From the NCBI GenBank assembly GCA_041572275.1, contig JBFFSQ010000001.1:8238-72237 (forward strand): a DNA stretch of 64,000 nt. The letters are read 5' to 3'. The position numbers and the translations under genes were made by a program. Shown in pieces: positions 18,686 through 33,600 of this stretch (positions are counted from its first letter, which is position 1; each line of letters opens with the position of its first letter). The stretch comes from Gammaproteobacteria bacterium (GTDB lineage Bacteria > Pseudomonadota > Gammaproteobacteria > SZUA-229). Under the pieces are notes generated by a model. That model saw only the letters and a program-made list of their open reading frames with translations, did no database searches and was not told the origin of the DNA.

Positions 18686-20512
18686 ATGAAACTGAATATT
18701 CCAGAACAAGTTGAGCCGGGTAAGGATGATTTCCCTAATCATCCCCGCAAAGTCAAAAAATGGCTTACCGAATTAAAACAGGCCAATATGGGTGACTATA
18801 CCCGTCAGATTTATAATGGTCTGATGCAGCTGAATCGCCAGTCGATGCCCCCTAAATACCGACTCGAAAACCTGGAACAATTACGTGAACCCACACGTCA
18901 TATTTTTAGTCAACTGCATAAACATTTTGTAAACCGAACGCTGCCATTACCGGAAAAAAGCCTGAAAATAATCACTCTGAACCAGGCCGTACTGAATGAA
19001 ATTGCCACCGGTTATAAAATTCTTATTTTTGAAGCTGCCAACGATCTAAACAAGGTCGATAACAAAATCCTTCTGGTCGCCTGCGAACGGGCCCTGCATT
19101 ACTATGCAGAATACCTGCTCAAGTCCAGTCAAATTTACGCCAATATTCCGAATGCCCTGTGGTGGGATATTCACCGTATTTATGCTTATGCAGAAAGCAA
19201 AAAACTGCATTCAAAAAAAATCAAAGATTCAGAACACTCGCTTAAATCTGTTTCTGTGGAAGATTACTATAAGCTTATTCTGCTATTTTCTCTGTCACGA
19301 CCCAATGCATTACGCCAAAGCGATACTGAACGCGTATTCATGGCTATGCCTGAATGGATTAAATACACCAACCTAACCAGTCATCCAGTAGCAAACAAAC
19401 TCAATCAATACTTCTGCAGCAAACTGGACAGCGACATACCGCCTCATTGCCTGAGTAATGACGAAATTAAGTCCGGCAGCAATATTCGTGCACTTGAAAC
19501 AGGTAAATTGCTTGAGTATCTAAAAAAACAAATTACTCAGAATGTTGATTTAACTAATGCCACAACCATAGACAATCAGATTTCGCAGGAAACCCTGCGC
19601 ATGCTGATAACCACCTGGAGCCTGTGCACTAAACGCCGCTTTTCAAGAGCTGATAAAGCCTCTGATATAAAAGTAGCTATTGGACTGACATCAATCCATA
19701 ATGCGATCATTGATCAACAAAAAGCACCTGAACCGAAGCGTAGCAAAAGACCTCGTTCAACATTTTCACTGGAATCCATATCGGATAACGAACGAGCCAA
19801 AAAAGATATTTTTGCACAACAGGAACCAACCTTTTTAATCACTCATCCCGACATGAAAGCCAGTGAGAGTTCATCAGCAGGCGCATGGGATATGGTGGCA
19901 AAAGGTCGTGCCCTGACCGAAAGCTATGCCAGAGAACTCCAGGCACAGGATGATGAACTTGGCGAATTAAACAAAGAAGCACCTGATCTTCACTGGAAAA
20001 TCAGTAATGTAAGTGCAGGCGGCTACTGCTTACAGTGGAATTCTCAAACAACATCGAGAGCACAGGTTGGTGAACTTATTGGTATCCGGGAAAAAGAACC
20101 AGACCATAGCTATCAATGGCGGGTCGGTGTTATTCGCTGGATGCAATACTCACGTGAAAATGGCCTTGAAATTGGTGTTCAGGTACTTTCACCTAAAGTC
20201 GTGACATGCTCCGTTCGGCGTCTTGAACGCAAGAATGAGGAGCCATTTAACTGTCTTTTACTGCCCGGCATCAAACCGCTACAACAACCAGCTACATTAC
20301 TACTCCCGGCATATGCCTTTAAAAAAGGCGGCATGCTACAACTCCATGCCTATGAACGTGACATGGAAATTCAACTGGGCACAATACGAGAACATACAGG
20401 ATCATTTACACAATTTCAGTTTATACAAACTGATAACAAGGACGCACCTGAAGAAAATGACAAAAAACAGAGTTCCTCTGATGATTTCGACTCAATCTGG
20501 TCATCCCTTTAA
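18686..20512 (+). CDS. Large hypothetical protein (608 aa) with a C-terminal PilZ-like domain (NxSxGG motif); the N-terminal ~450 aa is unrecognised
   Basis: The C-terminal ~130 aa contain ...WKISNVSAGGYCLQW..., matching the PilZ (D/N)xSxGG motif, followed by an alternating hydrophobic beta-pattern. A possible RxxxR-type element (KRRFSRADK) lies about 130 aa upstream. No SD precedes the annotated ATG, so the start is uncertain. It lies 31 nt upstream of the FimX-like gene on the same strand. Confidence 0.55.
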   Translation: MKLNIPEQVEPGKDDFPNHPRKVKKWLTELKQANMGDYTRQIYNGLMQLNRQSMPPKYRLENLEQLREPTRHIFSQLHKHFVNRTLPLPEKSLKIITLNQAVLNEIATGYKILIFEAANDLNKVDNKILLVACERALHYYAEYLLKSSQIYANIPNALWWDIHRIYAYAESKKLHSKKIKDSEHSLKSVSVEDYYKLILLFSLSRPNALRQSDTERVFMAMPEWIKYTNLTSHPVANKLNQYFCSKLDSDIPPHCLSNDEIKSGSNIRALETGKLLEYLKKQITQNVDLTNATTIDNQISQETLRMLITTWSLCTKRRFSRADKASDIKVAIGLTSIHNAIIDQQKAPEPKRSKRPRSTFSLESISDNERAKKDIFAQQEPTFLITHPDMKASESSSAGAWDMVAKGRALTESYARELQAQDDELGELNKEAPDLHWKISNVSAGGYCLQWNSQTTSRAQVGELIGIREKEPDHSYQWRVGVIRWMQYSRENGLEIGVQVLSPKVVTCSVRRLERKNEEPFNCLLLPGIKPLQQPATLLLPAYAFKKGGMLQLHAYERDMEIQLGTIREHTGSFTQFQFIQTDNKDAPEENDKKQSSSDDFDSIWSSL

Positions 20513-23348: not shown

Positions 23349-24083
23349 ATGTTAGATTCACTCTCAGCCGTTCAGCTGCTACTGGCTGTGCTGATAATCA
23401 TCATCGCCTTTCTGGTGAGAGGCATTACAGGCTTCGGATCCGGACTCATTGCCATACCATTGCTGGCACTCATGCTCCCGCTATCCATTGTGGTTCCCAT
23501 GGTAGGGCTCCTCGACTACATCGCAGCTAATAGTCATGGCATCAAGCATCGTCAATCCATTAACTGGGAAAGCATCTTGCCACTCCTACCCTTTACCTTT
23601 ATCGGAGTGCTATCGGCACTGTACCTGTTTAAGACAGTTGATGCCGATATTCTGCGAAAAGCATTAGGGGGGTTTATTATTTTTTATGCACTGTATTCTT
23701 TATTTTCAACCGCCAGCAGCAAACAGGGCTCACGTCTCTGGGCTATTCCTGCGGGGAGCCTTGGAGGTTTCATCAGTACATTATTTGGGACAGGTGGCCC
23801 CTTCTATGTGCTGTACCTGAGAATCCGCCACCTTGACAAACAGGCATTCCGGGCCACTACAGCGATGATTTTTGTCATTGATGGCAGCAGCCGTATTATC
23901 GGCTATATTTTTTCTGGTTTTTATACTACCGAAACCCTGCTGCTTGTGGCGATAGCATTACCCATTATGATGATCGGAATGTACGTGGGTGGCCATATAC
24001 ACACTTCACTTAGCCAACAGGATTTTCAGCGTGGCATAGGCATTTTACTCATTGGCAGTGGGCTAGCCCTGCTTTTACAATAA
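23349..24083 (+). CDS. TauE/SafE (TSUP, DUF81) family membrane transporter
   Basis: 244 aa with two TSUP half-repeats carrying Gly-rich motifs (GITGFGSGLIAIPLL ... FGTGGPFYVLYL). Confidence 0.75.
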   Translation: MLDSLSAVQLLLAVLIIIIAFLVRGITGFGSGLIAIPLLALMLPLSIVVPMVGLLDYIAANSHGIKHRQSINWESILPLLPFTFIGVLSALYLFKTVDADILRKALGGFIIFYALYSLFSTASSKQGSRLWAIPAGSLGGFISTLFGTGGPFYVLYLRIRHLDKQAFRATTAMIFVIDGSSRIIGYIFSGFYTTETLLLVAIALPIMMIGMYVGGHIHTSLSQQDFQRGIGILLIGSGLALLLQ

Positions 24084-26428: not shown

Positions 26429-26599
26429 ATATTATGATTCTTTAATATTTAAAACGGCTAATTATTTTACCCAACCAGCGTGAAATTGCATACGATGGAA
26501 TTCAAATATCCGAGAAATACTATGCTAAGCTAATATGTACACGCACTTCAGCAGGAGCACGTTTAAATCCCCCCACAAATGACTATGTAGGAGATAATC

Positions 26600-26944
26600 A
26601 TGCACATTGATATCCACAACAAACACATAGAAACAAATGAACAGGGTTTTTTATATCACCTGGATGACTGGAACGAAGACTATGCCAACGAAATGGCCCA
26701 ACGTGATGGCATCACCTTATACAATGATCACTGGGAACTGATCCTCTATTTCCGTGAATACTTTAATCAGAATCACGTTAACCCGACCATGCATCAGATC
26801 ATATGCACACTGGGCAAAACAAAAGGTAAACGTTTTCACGAGCAAAAGGCTTACGAAAAACATATTTATCAGCTGTTCCCTAAAGATCCTGCCCATGAAG
26901 TATGTAAACTTGCTGGCCTACCCATGCCCCAGCCAGATACTTAA
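26600..26944 (+). CDS. DsrC/TusE-family protein lacking the C-terminal catalytic cysteine
   Basis: 114 aa, aligns well to E. coli TusE (EGY..., HW..., YLYRLFPKGPA, KIAGLP). The C-terminus is ...VCKLAGLPMPQPDT*; the canonical end is ...GLPKPxxC[VI]. It retains a Cys at the DsrC CysB-equivalent position (VCKLAG). Confidence 0.75.
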   Translation: MHIDIHNKHIETNEQGFLYHLDDWNEDYANEMAQRDGITLYNDHWELILYFREYFNQNHVNPTMHQIICTLGKTKGKRFHEQKAYEKHIYQLFPKDPAHEVCKLAGLPMPQPDT

Positions 26945-26958
26945 ACACTATTAATCTT

Positions 26959-26999
26959 ACACAAACAAAAAGCCCGTATTGCGGGCTTTTTGTTTGTGT
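26959..26999. terminator. Bidirectional rho-independent terminator
   Basis: acacaaacaaaaagcccg-tattg-cgggctttttgtttgtgt forms a perfect extended palindrome. It has a GC core stem with an A-tract on one side and a T-tract on the other, and lies between convergent genes. Confidence 0.7.
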
Positions 27000-27218
27000 A
27001 ATCATACGGTACTCGATGACATTTATTTACGTACTAACACCAATACCCCGGCTATAACAGCAATAAGTCCGATGATAAGATCGTCATAACGAAAACTGAG
27101 ATTGGCAATCGATACCAAGCCATTCAACATCAACCACAGACCTAAAAATATTGGCCACAACTTCATAATCTCCCCCTATAACGTTTTGATAAAATCGATG
27201 AACGGCCTCAGCTTATAC

Positions 27219-29347: not shown

Positions 29348-31606
29348 TTAGCTTTTACGCAACACCTCAATACCATCGACTTTCTGGTAACCACGCGGCA
29401 GCTTAAAGCCACGCTTACCACGCTCACCTGCATGCTCGTCAACTTCATCAGCCTTCATGGTCTTATGCTTCTTACCTGCGTAGACCGTCAATTTCTCGCC
29501 ATCCTGAATAAGATCGATAGCACATATCCACTCTTCTGCAGATTTAAGTTTGGCAGGTGGAACATTTATAATTTTATTGCCTTTACCGCGAACCATTTGA
29601 GGCAGTTCTTCCAGAGCGGTGACCAGCATATGTCCTTCTGAACTCACCGCCACAATCCAGTCATCTTCCAGACTGCGAACTTTTACCGGCGGTAATACTT
29701 TTGCACCCTGGGGAACGTTGAGAAATGCTTTTCCGGCTTTATTTCTGGAATGTAAATCACCCAGTTTACATACAAAGCCATAACCGTAACTGGTCGAAAA
29801 CAGGTATAACTCATCCGGATTACCGATCAGTGCCGACACAAAGCCTGCTCCAGCCGGTGGATTAAATCGTCCCGTCAGAGGCTCTCCCTGTCCCCTGGCC
29901 GATGGCAGGGTATGTGCCTGCAAGGTATAAGCACGACCAGTACTATCGAGGAAGACTGCCAGTTGGTTCGATTTACCGGCGGCCGATGATTGTGGACCAT
30001 CGCCTGCTTTATAGTTGAGCTTATCGACATCGATGTCGTGACCTTTAGCCGCGCGAACCCAACCTTTCTGCGACAGCACCACAGTAATAGCTTCACTGGG
30101 TATCAAGGCCGTTTCATCCATCGCCTGAGCAGCCTCTCGACTAACAATGGGTGAACGACGCTTATCGCCATAGGCTTCAGCATCATCAAGAATTTCTTTT
30201 TTGATCAGTGTTTTCAACCGCTGATCAGAACTGAGCAGTTTTTCCAGCTGCGCTTTTTCCAGTGCCAGCTCTTCCTGTTCAGCACGAATTTTCATTTCTT
30301 CCAGACGTGCTAACTGACGTAGCTTGGTATCGAGAATATAATCCGCCTGCTCGTCTGACAGTTTAAATCGTTTAATCAACGCCGGTTTTGGCTTATCCGT
30401 TTCTCGAATAATCTTGATAACTTCATCGATATTCAGGAAAGCAATCAACAAACCTTCCAATAAATGCAAACGTTTGTTGACCTTATCCAGTCTCCAGTTC
30501 AAGCGGTTACGAACCGTCTGAATGCGATAACTTAACCATTCTTTTAATATCACCCGGATATTTTTAACCTGGGGACGACCATCGACACCAATCATGTTCA
30601 TATTGACACGATAGCTGCGTTCAAGGTCTGTAGTGGCAAACAAATGATTCATCAACTGTTCGGTATCCACTCGATTGGAGCGAGGAACAATCACCAGACG
30701 GGTTGGATTTTCATGATCTGATTCGTCACGTAAATCCTCCACCATTGGCAATTTCTTTGAGGTCATCTGCTGAGCAATCTGCTCCAGAATCTTGTTCCCA
30801 GATACTTGATAAGGCAAGGCGGTAATAATGATCTCACCATTATCTTTTTCGAATCTGGCACGGGCTCGAATACTGCCATTACCTTTGTTATAGATCGCAA
30901 GAATATCTTCACGCGAGGTAATAATTTCCGCTTCTGTCGGGTAATCTGGTCCTTGTATATGCTCACATAGTTCTTCGACCGTGGATTTCGGTTGATCCAG
31001 CAAACGTATACAGGCTGTAGCAACTTCTTTCAAATTATGCGGCGGTATATCAGTAGCCATACCCACTGCAATACCGGTCGAACCATTCAGCAGCACATTA
31101 GGTAAACGTGCGGGCAATGACCTGGGTTCTTCAAGCGTGCCATCAAAGTTTGGTATCCAGTCAACGGTGCCCTGGCCTAACTCCTGCAGTAAAACTTCTG
31201 CATACTTTGACAACTTGGATTCGGTATAACGCATAGCTGCAAATGATTTGGGGTCATCGGGCGAACCCCAGTTACCCTGCCCATCAACCAGTGGATAGCG
31301 ATAAGAAAAACTCTGCGCCATCAATACCATGGCCTCATAACATGCACTGTCACCATGGGGGTGAAACTTACCCAGCACATCACCCACCGTACGTGCCGAT
31401 TTCTTATATTTGGCACTGGCATTCAAGCCCAGCTCAGACATGGCATACACAATACGACGCTGCACCGGTTTTAAGCCGTCGCCAATAAACGGCAGCGCAC
31501 GATCGAGAATAACGTACATGGAATAATCCAGATACGCCTTCTCAGTAAAATGAGCTAACGGCTGTCTTTCAATACCTTCAAAATTCAAATCGTCTTGTTC
31601 GGACAT
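29348..31606 (-). CDS. parC: DNA topoisomerase IV subunit A
   Basis: 752 aa with a GyrA/ParC N-terminus ([28 protein letters not shown]). It lacks the GyrA C-terminal extension and lies adjacent to parE. Confidence 0.93.
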
Positions 31607-31716
31607 TCAATTATTACCATTCAATTCTTTAACAGCGCCACCACTGAAACATAAAGATCACAAAGCTTAATATGTAGTATTTCTTTGTGTGCTCTCAGTC
31701 TCTGCGGCTATTAAAC

Positions 31717-33600
31717 TTAAACTTCAGCCAGGTCACCTTTTTGCTCTAACCAGGCTTTTCGATCAGATGCGCGTTTCTTGGCCAACAGCATATCCATCAT
31801 GCGATTGCTGTCATCACCGGGTTCTACGACTAGCTGTACTAATCGACGGGTATCCGGCGCGATTGAGGTTTCTCTGAGCTGCAAAGGATTCATCTCACCC
31901 AGACCTTTAAATCGAGTCACCTGAACCTTACCTTTTTTCTTCTCTGCCGAGATACGATCCAGTACACCCTGCTTTTCAGCTTCATCCAGTGCGTAGAACA
32001 CGTCTTTGCCTACATCGATACGGAATAAAGGCGGCATCGCCACATAGACATGACCCGCTTCAACCAGTGTACGGAAATGACGCAGGAACAAAGCACATAA
32101 CAAGGTGGCAATATGGTAACCATCGGAGTCGGCATCTGCCAGAATACAAACCTTGCCATATCGCAAACCATCCAGTTTGCTACTACCCGGATCAACGCCA
32201 ATAGCGACAGAAATATCGTGTACTTCTTGTGAAGCTAGCACCTGATCAGGATCCACTTCCCAGGTATTCAGAATTTTACCGCGCAGGGGCATGATAGCCT
32301 GAAACTCTCGGTCACGTGCCTGCTTGGCCGAACCGCCCGCTGAATCACCTTCCACCAGGAACAGTTCGGTGCGCGTCACATCACTGGAACTACAATCCGC
32401 CAGCTTGCCCGGCAGTGCCGGTCCCTGGGTCACTTTTTTACGTGCAACTTTTTTACCCGCACGCAGACGTTTCTGTGCATTATCAATAGCCAGCAGTGCT
32501 ATACGCTCACCTTCATCTGTATGCTGGTTCAGCCATAAACTAAAAGCATCTTTCACCACACCAGATACAAATGGAGCACACTCACGGGACGATAGACGTT
32601 CCTTGGTCTGGCCAGAAAACTGAGGATCTTCCATTTTCACCGAAAGAATATAGCTCACCCGATCCCAGACATCTTCAGGACTAATCTTCACACCACGAGG
32701 GGTCAGGTTACGAAATTCACAAAACTCCCGTACCGCTTCGGTCAGCCCCGTACGCAAGCCATTAACATGAGTCCCACCCTGGGCAGTAGGAATTAAATTC
32801 ACATAGGACTCAGTTACCGCCTCACCACCTTCTGGCAACCACAACAATGCCCAATCCACCGCTTCATGATCACTGGCCAGACTGCCGATAAACGGATCAG
32901 CAGGCAGTAATTCATAGCCTTTCAGGGTTTCGGTTAAATATGCCTGTAAACCATCTTCGTAATACCATTCCTCAGTTTCACCGGTTTTTTCTTCCAGAAA
33001 AATGACGTGTAGCCCTGGGCATAGCACGGCTTTGGCGCGTAATACATGGCGCAGTCGCGACACAGAAAAATTAGCTGAATCAAAATATTTGGCTTCTGGC
33101 CAGAAACGAATATGCGTACCGGTATTCTTCTTACCCACGGTACCTGTTTCTTTCAGCTCACTGACCTTGTTGCCATGAGCAAAGGCAATATTGTATTCCT
33201 TACCGTCACGCCTGATATCGGCTTCCAACCGATAAGACAGTGCATTCACCACCGATACACCGACACCATGCAGACCACCAGAGAACTGATAATTCTTATT
33301 GGAGAACTTACCACCGGCATGTAACTTGGTCAGAATAACTTCAACCCCAGGCACACCTTCCTCCGGATGGATATCCACCGGCATGCCGCGACCATCGTCG
33401 ACCACACCCAGAGAGCCGTCTTTATATAGTGTCACCTGAATTCGACTGGCATGTCCGGCAACGGCTTCATCAACACTGTTATCGATGACTTCCTGAGCCA
33501 GATGGTTAGGGCGTGTAGTATCGGTATACATGCCTGGGCGTTTCTGCACAGGCTCAAGACCGGTAAGGACTTCAATGGCTGAAGCGTCGTATGAACTCAT
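31717..33600 (-). CDS. parE: DNA topoisomerase IV subunit B
   Basis: 627 aa with a GHKL ATPase + TOPRIM architecture (LEPVQKRPGMYTDTTRPNHL...). It is upstream of parC. Confidence 0.93.
   Translation of the reverse strand: MSSYDASAIEVLTGLEPVQKRPGMYTDTTRPNHLAQEVIDNSVDEAVAGHASRIQVTLYKDGSLGVVDDGRGMPVDIHPEEGVPGVEVILTKLHAGGKFSNKNYQFSGGLHGVGVSVVNALSYRLEADIRRDGKEYNIAFAHGNKVSELKETGTVGKKNTGTHIRFWPEAKYFDSANFSVSRLRHVLRAKAVLCPGLHVIFLEEKTGETEEWYYEDGLQAYLTETLKGYELLPADPFIGSLASDHEAVDWALLWLPEGGEAVTESYVNLIPTAQGGTHVNGLRTGLTEAVREFCEFRNLTPRGVKISPEDVWDRVSYILSVKMEDPQFSGQTKERLSSRECAPFVSGVVKDAFSLWLNQHTDEGERIALLAIDNAQKRLRAGKKVARKKVTQGPALPGKLADCSSSDVTRTELFLVEGDSAGGSAKQARDREFQAIMPLRGKILNTWEVDPDQVLASQEVHDISVAIGVDPGSSKLDGLRYGKVCILADADSDGYHIATLLCALFLRHFRTLVEAGHVYVAMPPLFRIDVGKDVFYALDEAEKQGVLDRISAEKKKGKVQVTRFKGLGEMNPLQLRETSIAPDTRRLVQLVVEPGDDSNRMMDMLLAKKRASDRKAWLEQKGDLAEV

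Follow-up and report, generated by a model that had tools for sequence, protein, structure and literature searches.

In the canonical cytoplasmic sulfur relays, the C-terminal cysteine CysA takes the persulfide sulfur from TusD or DsrE and passes it to MnmA or DsrAB. The DsrC superfamily, to which the carriers TusE and DsrC belong, has a third group, RspA, which Venceslau et al. (2014, BBA 1837:1148) are said to have named 'regulatory sulfur-related protein' and for which the conserved cysteines are reportedly not required. We describe here a gene of this superfamily whose product keeps the second cysteine of DsrC, CysB, and has an aspartate in the place of CysA. It lies on a chromosomal stretch of 64,000 nucleotides from a gammaproteobacterium (contig JBFFSQ010000001.1, assembly GCA_041572275.1), which is called the window below.

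DsrC of Allochromatium vinosum is persulfurated exclusively at CysA, not at CysB, and both the interaction of DsrEFH with DsrC and the sulfur transfer are strictly dependent on CysA (PMC3397948). In the retracted state of the DsrC arm, CysA lies beside CysB in a sheltered pocket, and in the extended state the arm enters DsrAB or DsrK (bioRxiv 10.64898/2026.08.25.746951). The superfamily has been described as consisting of DsrC, TusE and RspA (PMC8477390), and a passage of a 2022 paper regards DsrC-like proteins that 'lack CysA' as probable RspA regulators (PMC9371685, citing Venceslau et al. 2014). Further members have been reported in sulfur oxidizers: A. vinosum has four extra DsrC-family proteins (PMC3368242), and Thiohalobacter contains an rDsr system together with three dsrC/tusE genes, one of which is a genuine dsrC (PMC6504805). 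Phages also carry DsrC-like auxiliary genes that miss one C-terminal cysteine, among them dsrC_1 of SUP05 viruses and those of Kieft et al. 2021, and one of 141 phage DsrC sequences has the first Cys motif only (PMC4164917, PMC8190135). A CysA-less DsrC paralogue in a bacterium of the sulfur-oxidizer type is of an already known kind. The elements of the window gene to which we refer are the following.

26600..26944, plus strand: coding sequence of a DsrC-family protein of the CysB-only type with a PxPD[TD] tail (ATG start, 114 aa, stop included)
26590..26594, plus strand: Shine-Dalgarno sequence GGAGA, read in the sequence, with the ATG 5 nt further
26903..26941, plus strand: C-terminal arm, residues 102-114, CKLAGLPMPQPDT, of the length of the DsrC arm and without CysA (alignments)
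26903..26905, plus strand: TGT codon of Cys102, the equivalent of DsrC CysB (sequence, alignment to C100 of 1yx3)
26936..26938, plus strand: GAT codon of Asp113, at the exact position of CysA (sequence, multiple alignment)
26957..27001, no strand assigned: palindromic hairpin, perfect over 21 bp, whose GC core is flanked by A/T tracts (RNA fold)

The open reading frame (ORF) was present exactly as in the preliminary description, which had assigned its product to the DsrC/TusE family, and this assignment is borne out by both profiles and fold. Residues 5-111 match the Pfam family DsrC (PF04358) with an E-value of 6.2e-31 and 107.5 bits (cut-off 24.9), and the TusE/DsrC/DsvC model TIGR03342 gives 102.3 bits against a cut-off of 53.5. 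The nearest solved structure by sequence is DsrC of A. vinosum (1yx3, E=2e-21, 34% identity). An AlphaFold2 model built with 30 homologues as input reached a mean predicted local distance difference test score (pLDDT) of 84.7, the arm being at pLDDT 93 through Pro110. When this model was used to search the PDB, the top eight matches were DsrC/TusE structures (template modelling score 0.84 to 1yx3), in line with the DsrC fold of an N-terminal beta-hairpin, a helical bundle and a C-terminal arm. The window protein is therefore a genuine member of the DsrC/TusE/DsvC superfamily.

Looking at the arm, pairwise and multiple alignments agree that Cys102 corresponds to CysB (C100 of A. vinosum DsrC) and Asp113 to CysA (C111). 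Since 12 residues follow CysB in the window protein as well as in A. vinosum DsrC (ending PQPDT and PTGCV, respectively), Asp113 falls exactly on CysA, and none of the last 12 residues is a cysteine. The penultimate cysteine is thus missing, as had been proposed; the remaining cysteine was correctly placed at the CysB position, and its distance, earlier given as about 12 residues from the end, is to be corrected: 12 residues come after Cys102, which is the 13th when counted from the C-terminus. Cys102 stands where DsrC proper has CysB, ten residues upstream of CysA, and the arm that follows (AGLPMPQPDT) departs from that of DsrC proper at several positions. The cysteine equivalent to Cys108 of Escherichia coli TusE, which is CysA, is absent. 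A second cysteine of the protein, Cys69, is shared in one alignment (A1) by the 93%-identical orthologue alone.

Compared with DsrC (A. vinosum 1YX3, Archaeoglobus fulgidus 1SAU), the window protein shares the Pfam family, the fold, the arm length, the C-x-x-A-G-L-P-x-P core and CysB, and in some Betaproteobacteria the gene of its relatives stands beside the dsr operon. It differs from DsrC by the invariant Asp that replaces CysA in its clade, so that neither a CysA persulfide nor a CysA-S-CysB trisulfide can form, as well as by an inserted xFH[DE] motif, by its richness in histidine and by the location of its gene, which is not part of a dsr operon and is not encoded with dsrAB, dsrEFH or dsrMK within the window. 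With TusE (E. coli YccK) it has in common the superfamily, a similar size, an often solitary gene and the name used in public annotation; however, TusE possesses CysA without CysB, whereas the window protein possesses CysB without CysA, the two belong to separate branches, and the score against the TusE equivalog model NF008562 (73.9 bits) is far from the cut-off of 191. Like RspA, it is a CysA-less DsrC-family protein that sulfur oxidizers encode besides a genuine DsrC; unlike RspA, for which the cysteines are reportedly dispensable by definition, its clade keeps CysB invariant and conserves the arm best. The phage DsrC-like genes also miss one of the two C-terminal cysteines, but the context of the window gene is one of chromosomal housekeeping genes. 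A phage origin was considered and rejected, no member of the clade being found on viral contigs and the best viral relatives being only 32-35% identical.

We then examined how far the Cys-to-Asp variant is conserved. The homologue set comprised 120 listed clusters of 61-93% identity, nearly all of them 113-116 aa long; in addition, a one-genome-per-species scan, which covered stretches matching two clade-derived peptide patterns, confirmed 168 relatives, and 80 loci were fetched. The tail CK[LI][AS]GL[PS]xPxPDx-stop was found in all 120 listed clusters and in 78 of the 80 fetched loci, its usual form in the listed clusters being C-K-[LI]-[AS]-G-L-P-[ML]-P-[QP]-P-D-[TD]. None of the 120 clusters deviates at C102, K, G, L, P110, P112 or D113, and P108 is kept in 119 of them, which makes the arm the best conserved segment of the clade. 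Two loci are exceptions, one with Gly for Cys102 (L076) and one with Ser-Pro for Pro-x (L068). An independent metagenome-assembled genome (MAG), GCA_041569935.1, codes for the identical protein, and the gene order around the 93%-identical orthologue is that of the window. No DsrC-like tail (...GLPKPxxC[VI]) was found in the other two forward frames of the gene, in agreement with the earlier statement that alternative frames do not restore one. A frameshift or a sequencing error, which the preliminary description had left as a reservation, is ruled out by the absence of such a tail in these frames and by the conservation of the tail in the homologues, together with the identical protein of the second assembly. 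Judged from the sequences, the loss of CysA has been fixed under selection throughout a large clade, and the conservation of the arm, of C102 and of D113 clearly points to a functional protein with a functional arm. An inactive protein, one of the outcomes foreseen earlier, is at odds with such strong conservation across two proteobacterial classes.

To place the protein in its family, 1.84 billion 50%-identity representatives were searched and a neighbour-joining tree was built from the single-domain matches. Sequences of the TusE type (CysA only) and those of the DsrC type (both cysteines) mostly fall in branches of their own, and the clade of the window protein nests in a third branch, all members of which lack CysA and most of which have CysB. 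Helices 3 and 4 are separated in this third branch by four residues, xFH[DE], that are inserted relative to DsrC and TusE. A profile made from it finds thousands of family proteins, and almost all of the best 116, which we examined, have CK[LI]AGLPKP followed by a short, acidic, Cys-free tail (LPTEHDG, LPSEREG, EPGD, EPDT, xEEFED or xEVET). CysB is missing in about 4 of these best ~116 sister-branch proteins, where it is replaced by Ser in three and the fourth is irregular. The window protein belongs to the PxPD[TD] sub-clade, whose nearest sister includes proteins such as P0361, ending PKPEPDT. Proteins that have only CysB, with an acidic arm end, thus form a large, established lineage. Placement in a known Cys-less regulatory clade had been named beforehand as a ground for rejecting the observation; this essentially applies, in that the protein lies inside a large, coherent CysA-less branch, and, given this branch and the RspA literature, it is no oddity of this genome. 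The near-invariance of CysB argues that the thiol would matter and would fit poorly with a Cys-independent regulator. In one sister-clade protein (P0329), an extended tail, ...CKLAGLPKPEPGTDSLNCPCV, brings cysteines back near the C-terminus.

The composition of the clade was also recorded. Its proteins are acidic (median isoelectric point (pI) 5.1, net charge about -8; pI 5.9 for the window protein) and unusually rich in histidine, with a median of 6 His in the clade and 10 in the window protein compared with a single one in A. vinosum DsrC. H44, H65 and H88 are invariant in the clade, while H80 and H99 come close to it. A metal site made of H44, H65, H88, C102 and D113 was envisaged and not adopted, as most of the histidines are not conserved in the sister clades.

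We looked at the relation of these genes to dsr genes and to other DsrC paralogues. In two betaproteobacterial loci (L065 and L069), the gene precedes dsrABEFHCMK by about 3.4 kb; in L069, Pfam matches verified DsrB, E, F, H, M and K, and the DsrC of this operon is a canonical, two-Cys protein (...ACKYAGLPKPTGCV). A third locus (L067) contains dsrB, E, F and H and a DsrC ORF before the locus ends. The presence of a canonical DsrC in the same locus means that the CysA-less protein is an additional paralogue and not the DsrC of the cell. In the sister clade, the gene of P0341 (...CKLAGLPKPLPSEHDG; L091 7001-11847) shares its strand with dsrA-dsrB-dsrL and precedes them by 154 nt. A few kb upstream of it are an ArsR-type helix-turn-helix gene and a rhodanese gene.

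In 21 of 81 loci, which span at least six unrelated synteny groups, a second CysA-less paralogue, with the tail ...QGCR[IL]AGL[KE][AP]PAGxxDxxFGSV and mostly retaining CysB, lies no more than 10 kb from the gene. The two genes are directly adjacent (22-170 nt) in four of them. The FGSV paralogue and the PxPD[TD] protein may form a functional pair. Four of the FGSV paralogue genes, besides 17 others, are the following.

L046 4326-4766, minus strand
L059 1064-1429, minus strand
L080 10460-10825, minus strand
L033 10515-10883, plus strand

A Cys-free paralogue with an 'RKGGY' tail was also present in betaproteobacterial loci. There, the genes form a 'DsrC paralogue island' (L069 6768-19985, also in L065, L067 and L020), which contains the FGSV paralogue, a 2-oxoglutarate (2OG)-Fe(II) oxygenase, the PxPDT-type gene and the RKGGY paralogue, followed by dsrABEFHCMK. 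The oxygenase gene (PF13640) lies on the strand of the PxPDT-type gene and ends 13 nt ahead of it. It is suggestive that an oxygenase resembling prolyl 4-hydroxylases neighbours a protein whose arm has invariant Pro and Asp; the arrangement was seen in 8-9 betaproteobacterial loci only.

The hosts that bear a name are mostly Gamma- and Betaproteobacteria of the sulfur-oxidizer type: Thiohalobacter, Thiogranum (including the cultured T. longum), Thiohalophilus, Acidiferrobacterales, Thiotrichaceae, Ectothiorhodospiraceae, Ca. Muproteobacteria, Burkholderiales and Casimicrobiaceae, and the sister clade is present in Thiobacillus. These taxa are largely Dsr-type sulfur oxidizers. Two contigs look mis-binned or mislabelled: L006 is labelled Candidatus Paceibacterota, yet shows a holB-pilZ-tatD synteny typical of sulfur-oxidizing Proteobacteria, and L069 is labelled uncultured Enterobacteriaceae, yet carries a GC-rich dsr operon typical of the same organisms.

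Asp at the CysA position bars the window protein from acting as the terminal carrier of a Tus- or Dsr-type persulfide relay. We favour the reading, to which we give about an even chance of being right, that it is an accessory, non-relay partner of cytoplasmic Dsr sulfur oxidation; what it binds, what Cys102 does and how physiology is affected are inferred. It would use its DsrC-like body and its rigid, Pro-rich arm to dock on a DsrC-binding partner, for which DsrAB, DsrK, DsrEFH and the second CysA-less paralogue are candidates, and Cys102, as the sole reactive group, would form a mixed (per)sulfide or act as a redox reporter. Several results weigh against this reading. No dsr, sox or tus gene was detected in the window with Pfam and NCBIfam (about 50 ORFs); linkage to dsr genes occurs in few lineages only and could reflect lineage-specific gene order; clustering of all ORFs located up to 6 kb from the gene in the 81 loci showed gene order to be kept only within lineages, and no single neighbour recurred across lineages except another DsrC paralogue; and the named hosts represent a minority of the loci, most being unclassified MAGs. 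A different thiol chemistry, in which the protein is a sulfur or redox carrier with Cys102 as its only active thiol and Asp113, placed beside it when the arm is retracted, as an acid/base or gating residue, is unlikely, if by no means negligible; it might involve pairing with the FGSV paralogue, the two molecules being joined, for example, by Cys-S(n)-Cys links. CysB occurs in all 120 listed clusters and is replaced in only about 4 of the ~116 sister-branch proteins and in one of the 80 loci, a retention that makes an unused thiol hard to explain. The exact coincidence of Asp with the CysA position, the order predicted for the arm through P110 (pLDDT 93), the retracted DsrC arm that joins CysA and CysB (bioRxiv 10.64898/2026.08.25.746951) and the vicinity of the CysB-only FGSV paralogue (at most 10 kb away in 21 of 81 loci, adjacent in four) point in the same direction. 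Yet such a carrier is without known donor or acceptor, persulfuration of A. vinosum DsrC takes place exclusively at CysA (PMC3397948), no sulfurtransferase gene (tusA, dsrE or rhodanese) is a conserved neighbour, and L076 naturally has Gly at the CysB position. A broader proposal, which we regard as doubtful, is that the CysB-only proteins with an acidic, Cys-free arm constitute a fourth, thiol-dependent class of the DsrC superfamily, separate from DsrC, TusE and the Cys-independent RspA. This class would serve the oxidative Dsr pathway as a dedicated module for redox, sulfur handling or gating, possibly paired with the FGSV protein; in one variant, the arm would mimic an oxidised CysA and sit where DsrC docks on DsrAB or DsrK.

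A rather small probability is also given to a transcription regulator of the RspA type, in which an HTH-like (helix-turn-helix) element of the DsrC fold would bind DNA, for instance at dsr promoters, and the relay cysteine would not be needed. Such a regulator would agree with the proposal, in the 2022 passage, that CysA-less DsrC-like proteins are the regulatory RspA (PMC9371685, citing Venceslau et al. 2014), with a weak fold echo of LexA winged-helix domains (match probability ~0.5, 57 columns) and with a gene that is monocistronic and solitary, as those of regulators often are. However, a median pI of 5.1 and a charge of about -8 are unfavourable for DNA binding by the protein on its own, CysB is invariant whereas RspA reportedly has no Cys requirement, the arm and not the helices is most conserved, and the window protein contains no DNA-binding Pfam domain. 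It is quite improbable that the protein is a TusE-like adaptor of tRNA 2-thiouridine synthesis that docks on MnmA-tRNA or TusBCD without carrying sulfur. Many members are publicly annotated as 'tRNA 2-thiouridine synthesizing protein E', and the gene follows mnmA-hflD on the same strand in the case of P0002 (L087/L088) and trmA in Thiogranum; but these annotations are automatic, family-level transfers, the catalytic cysteine of TusE is absent, the equivalog score remains at 73.9 of the 191 bits needed, mnmA is nearby in two lineages only of about 82, and the named hosts are mostly sulfur oxidizers, not the general spread expected of a tRNA-modification factor. Finally, next to no credence can be given to an artefact or a decaying gene, in which a frameshift, a sequencing error or a pseudogene would have lost the canonical ...C[VI] end: nothing more than the unusual tail itself speaks for it, whereas this tail is shared by the 120 clusters and 78 of the 80 loci in many independent assemblies, an identical protein is encoded by an independent MAG, the other frames hold no DsrC tail, and a good Shine-Dalgarno sequence and a strong terminator flank the gene.

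As a rule the gene stands alone, and so does the window copy. A conserved operon partner was sought and rejected, the neighbours in the 81 loci representing lineage-specific synteny only, as in the following arrangements.

recX-recA-[gene and an ORF of 128 aa of unknown function]-cinA-mutS
tatD-pilZ-holB-gene
trmA-gene-ruvABC, trmA preceding the gene in Thiogranum
in Betaproteobacteria, DUF6866 ... Sel1 - 2OG-Fe(II) oxygenase - gene - small ORF - S24 peptidase

The small lineage-specific neighbours c2, c8 and c17 are unrelated to one another, absent from the window and without Pfam match. The mnmA gene, whose product is the enzyme served by TusE in E. coli, adjoins the gene in L087/L088 and L070 only, the two lineages mentioned above. 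In L087 (7072-10345) and L088, the order is nudix - unknown - mnmA - hflD followed by the gene on the same strand, which encodes the relative P0002 (72% identity). As this linkage is limited to L087/L088 and L070, it is a weak lead.

In the window, the hairpin at 26957-27001 starts 13 bases past the stop codon and has a folding free energy of -31.9 kcal/mol (z = -10.2 compared with shuffled sequences). A simple consensus scan for promoters and terminators reported neither a promoter nor this hairpin. The hairpin is probably a bidirectional intrinsic terminator between the DsrC-like gene and a convergent small membrane ORF with ylqF, and, because of this position, the DsrC-like gene looks monocistronic. 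No second DsrC-family ORF was found within the window, which is an ordinary piece of chromosome with leuBCD/leuA, asd, aroC, efp-epmAB, parCE, addA, lptFG, valS, prfC, cyaA and others. A permease of the TauE/SafE family (sulfite-exporter type), all that the profile scans for sulfur genes brought up, is encoded at 23349-24083 (plus strand), 2.5 kb upstream of the DsrC-like gene; next come two small ORFs, neither of which matches Pfam or NCBIfam, and a Bax-like glucosaminidase, and the same order of permease, small ORFs and glucosaminidase occurs on the contig of the 93%-identical orthologue. The parC-parE genes (29348-33600, minus strand) are 2.4 kb from the DsrC-like gene, and the gene of the sister-clade protein P0361 directly follows parE-x-parC (L092 1747-7345); this proximity in both places may be the remnant of an ancestral linkage or due to chance. 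An ORF of 608 aa without Pfam match (18686-20512, plus strand) is located between the efp-epmA/epmB cluster and the gene of a PAS-GGDEF-EAL protein.

What may be new is the exact Cys-to-Asp swap, the combination of an invariant CysB with a Pro-x-Pro-x-Pro-Asp arm and the recurrence of a second CysA-less paralogue nearby. Because CysA is missing, these data contradict the family-level annotation transfers, and thus flag a widespread mis-annotation as 'tRNA 2-thiouridine synthesizing protein E' or 'sulfurtransferase'; the signature CK[LI][AS]GLPxPxPD[TD]-stop is a sharp one that can serve to sort DsrC paralogues in metagenomes. The finding alone does not reveal a new mechanism. Sulfur oxidizers commonly have several dsrC-like genes, only one of which is explained, and simple mutants such as C102S and D113C would bear on whether the protein regulates, or takes part in, Dsr-dependent sulfur oxidation.

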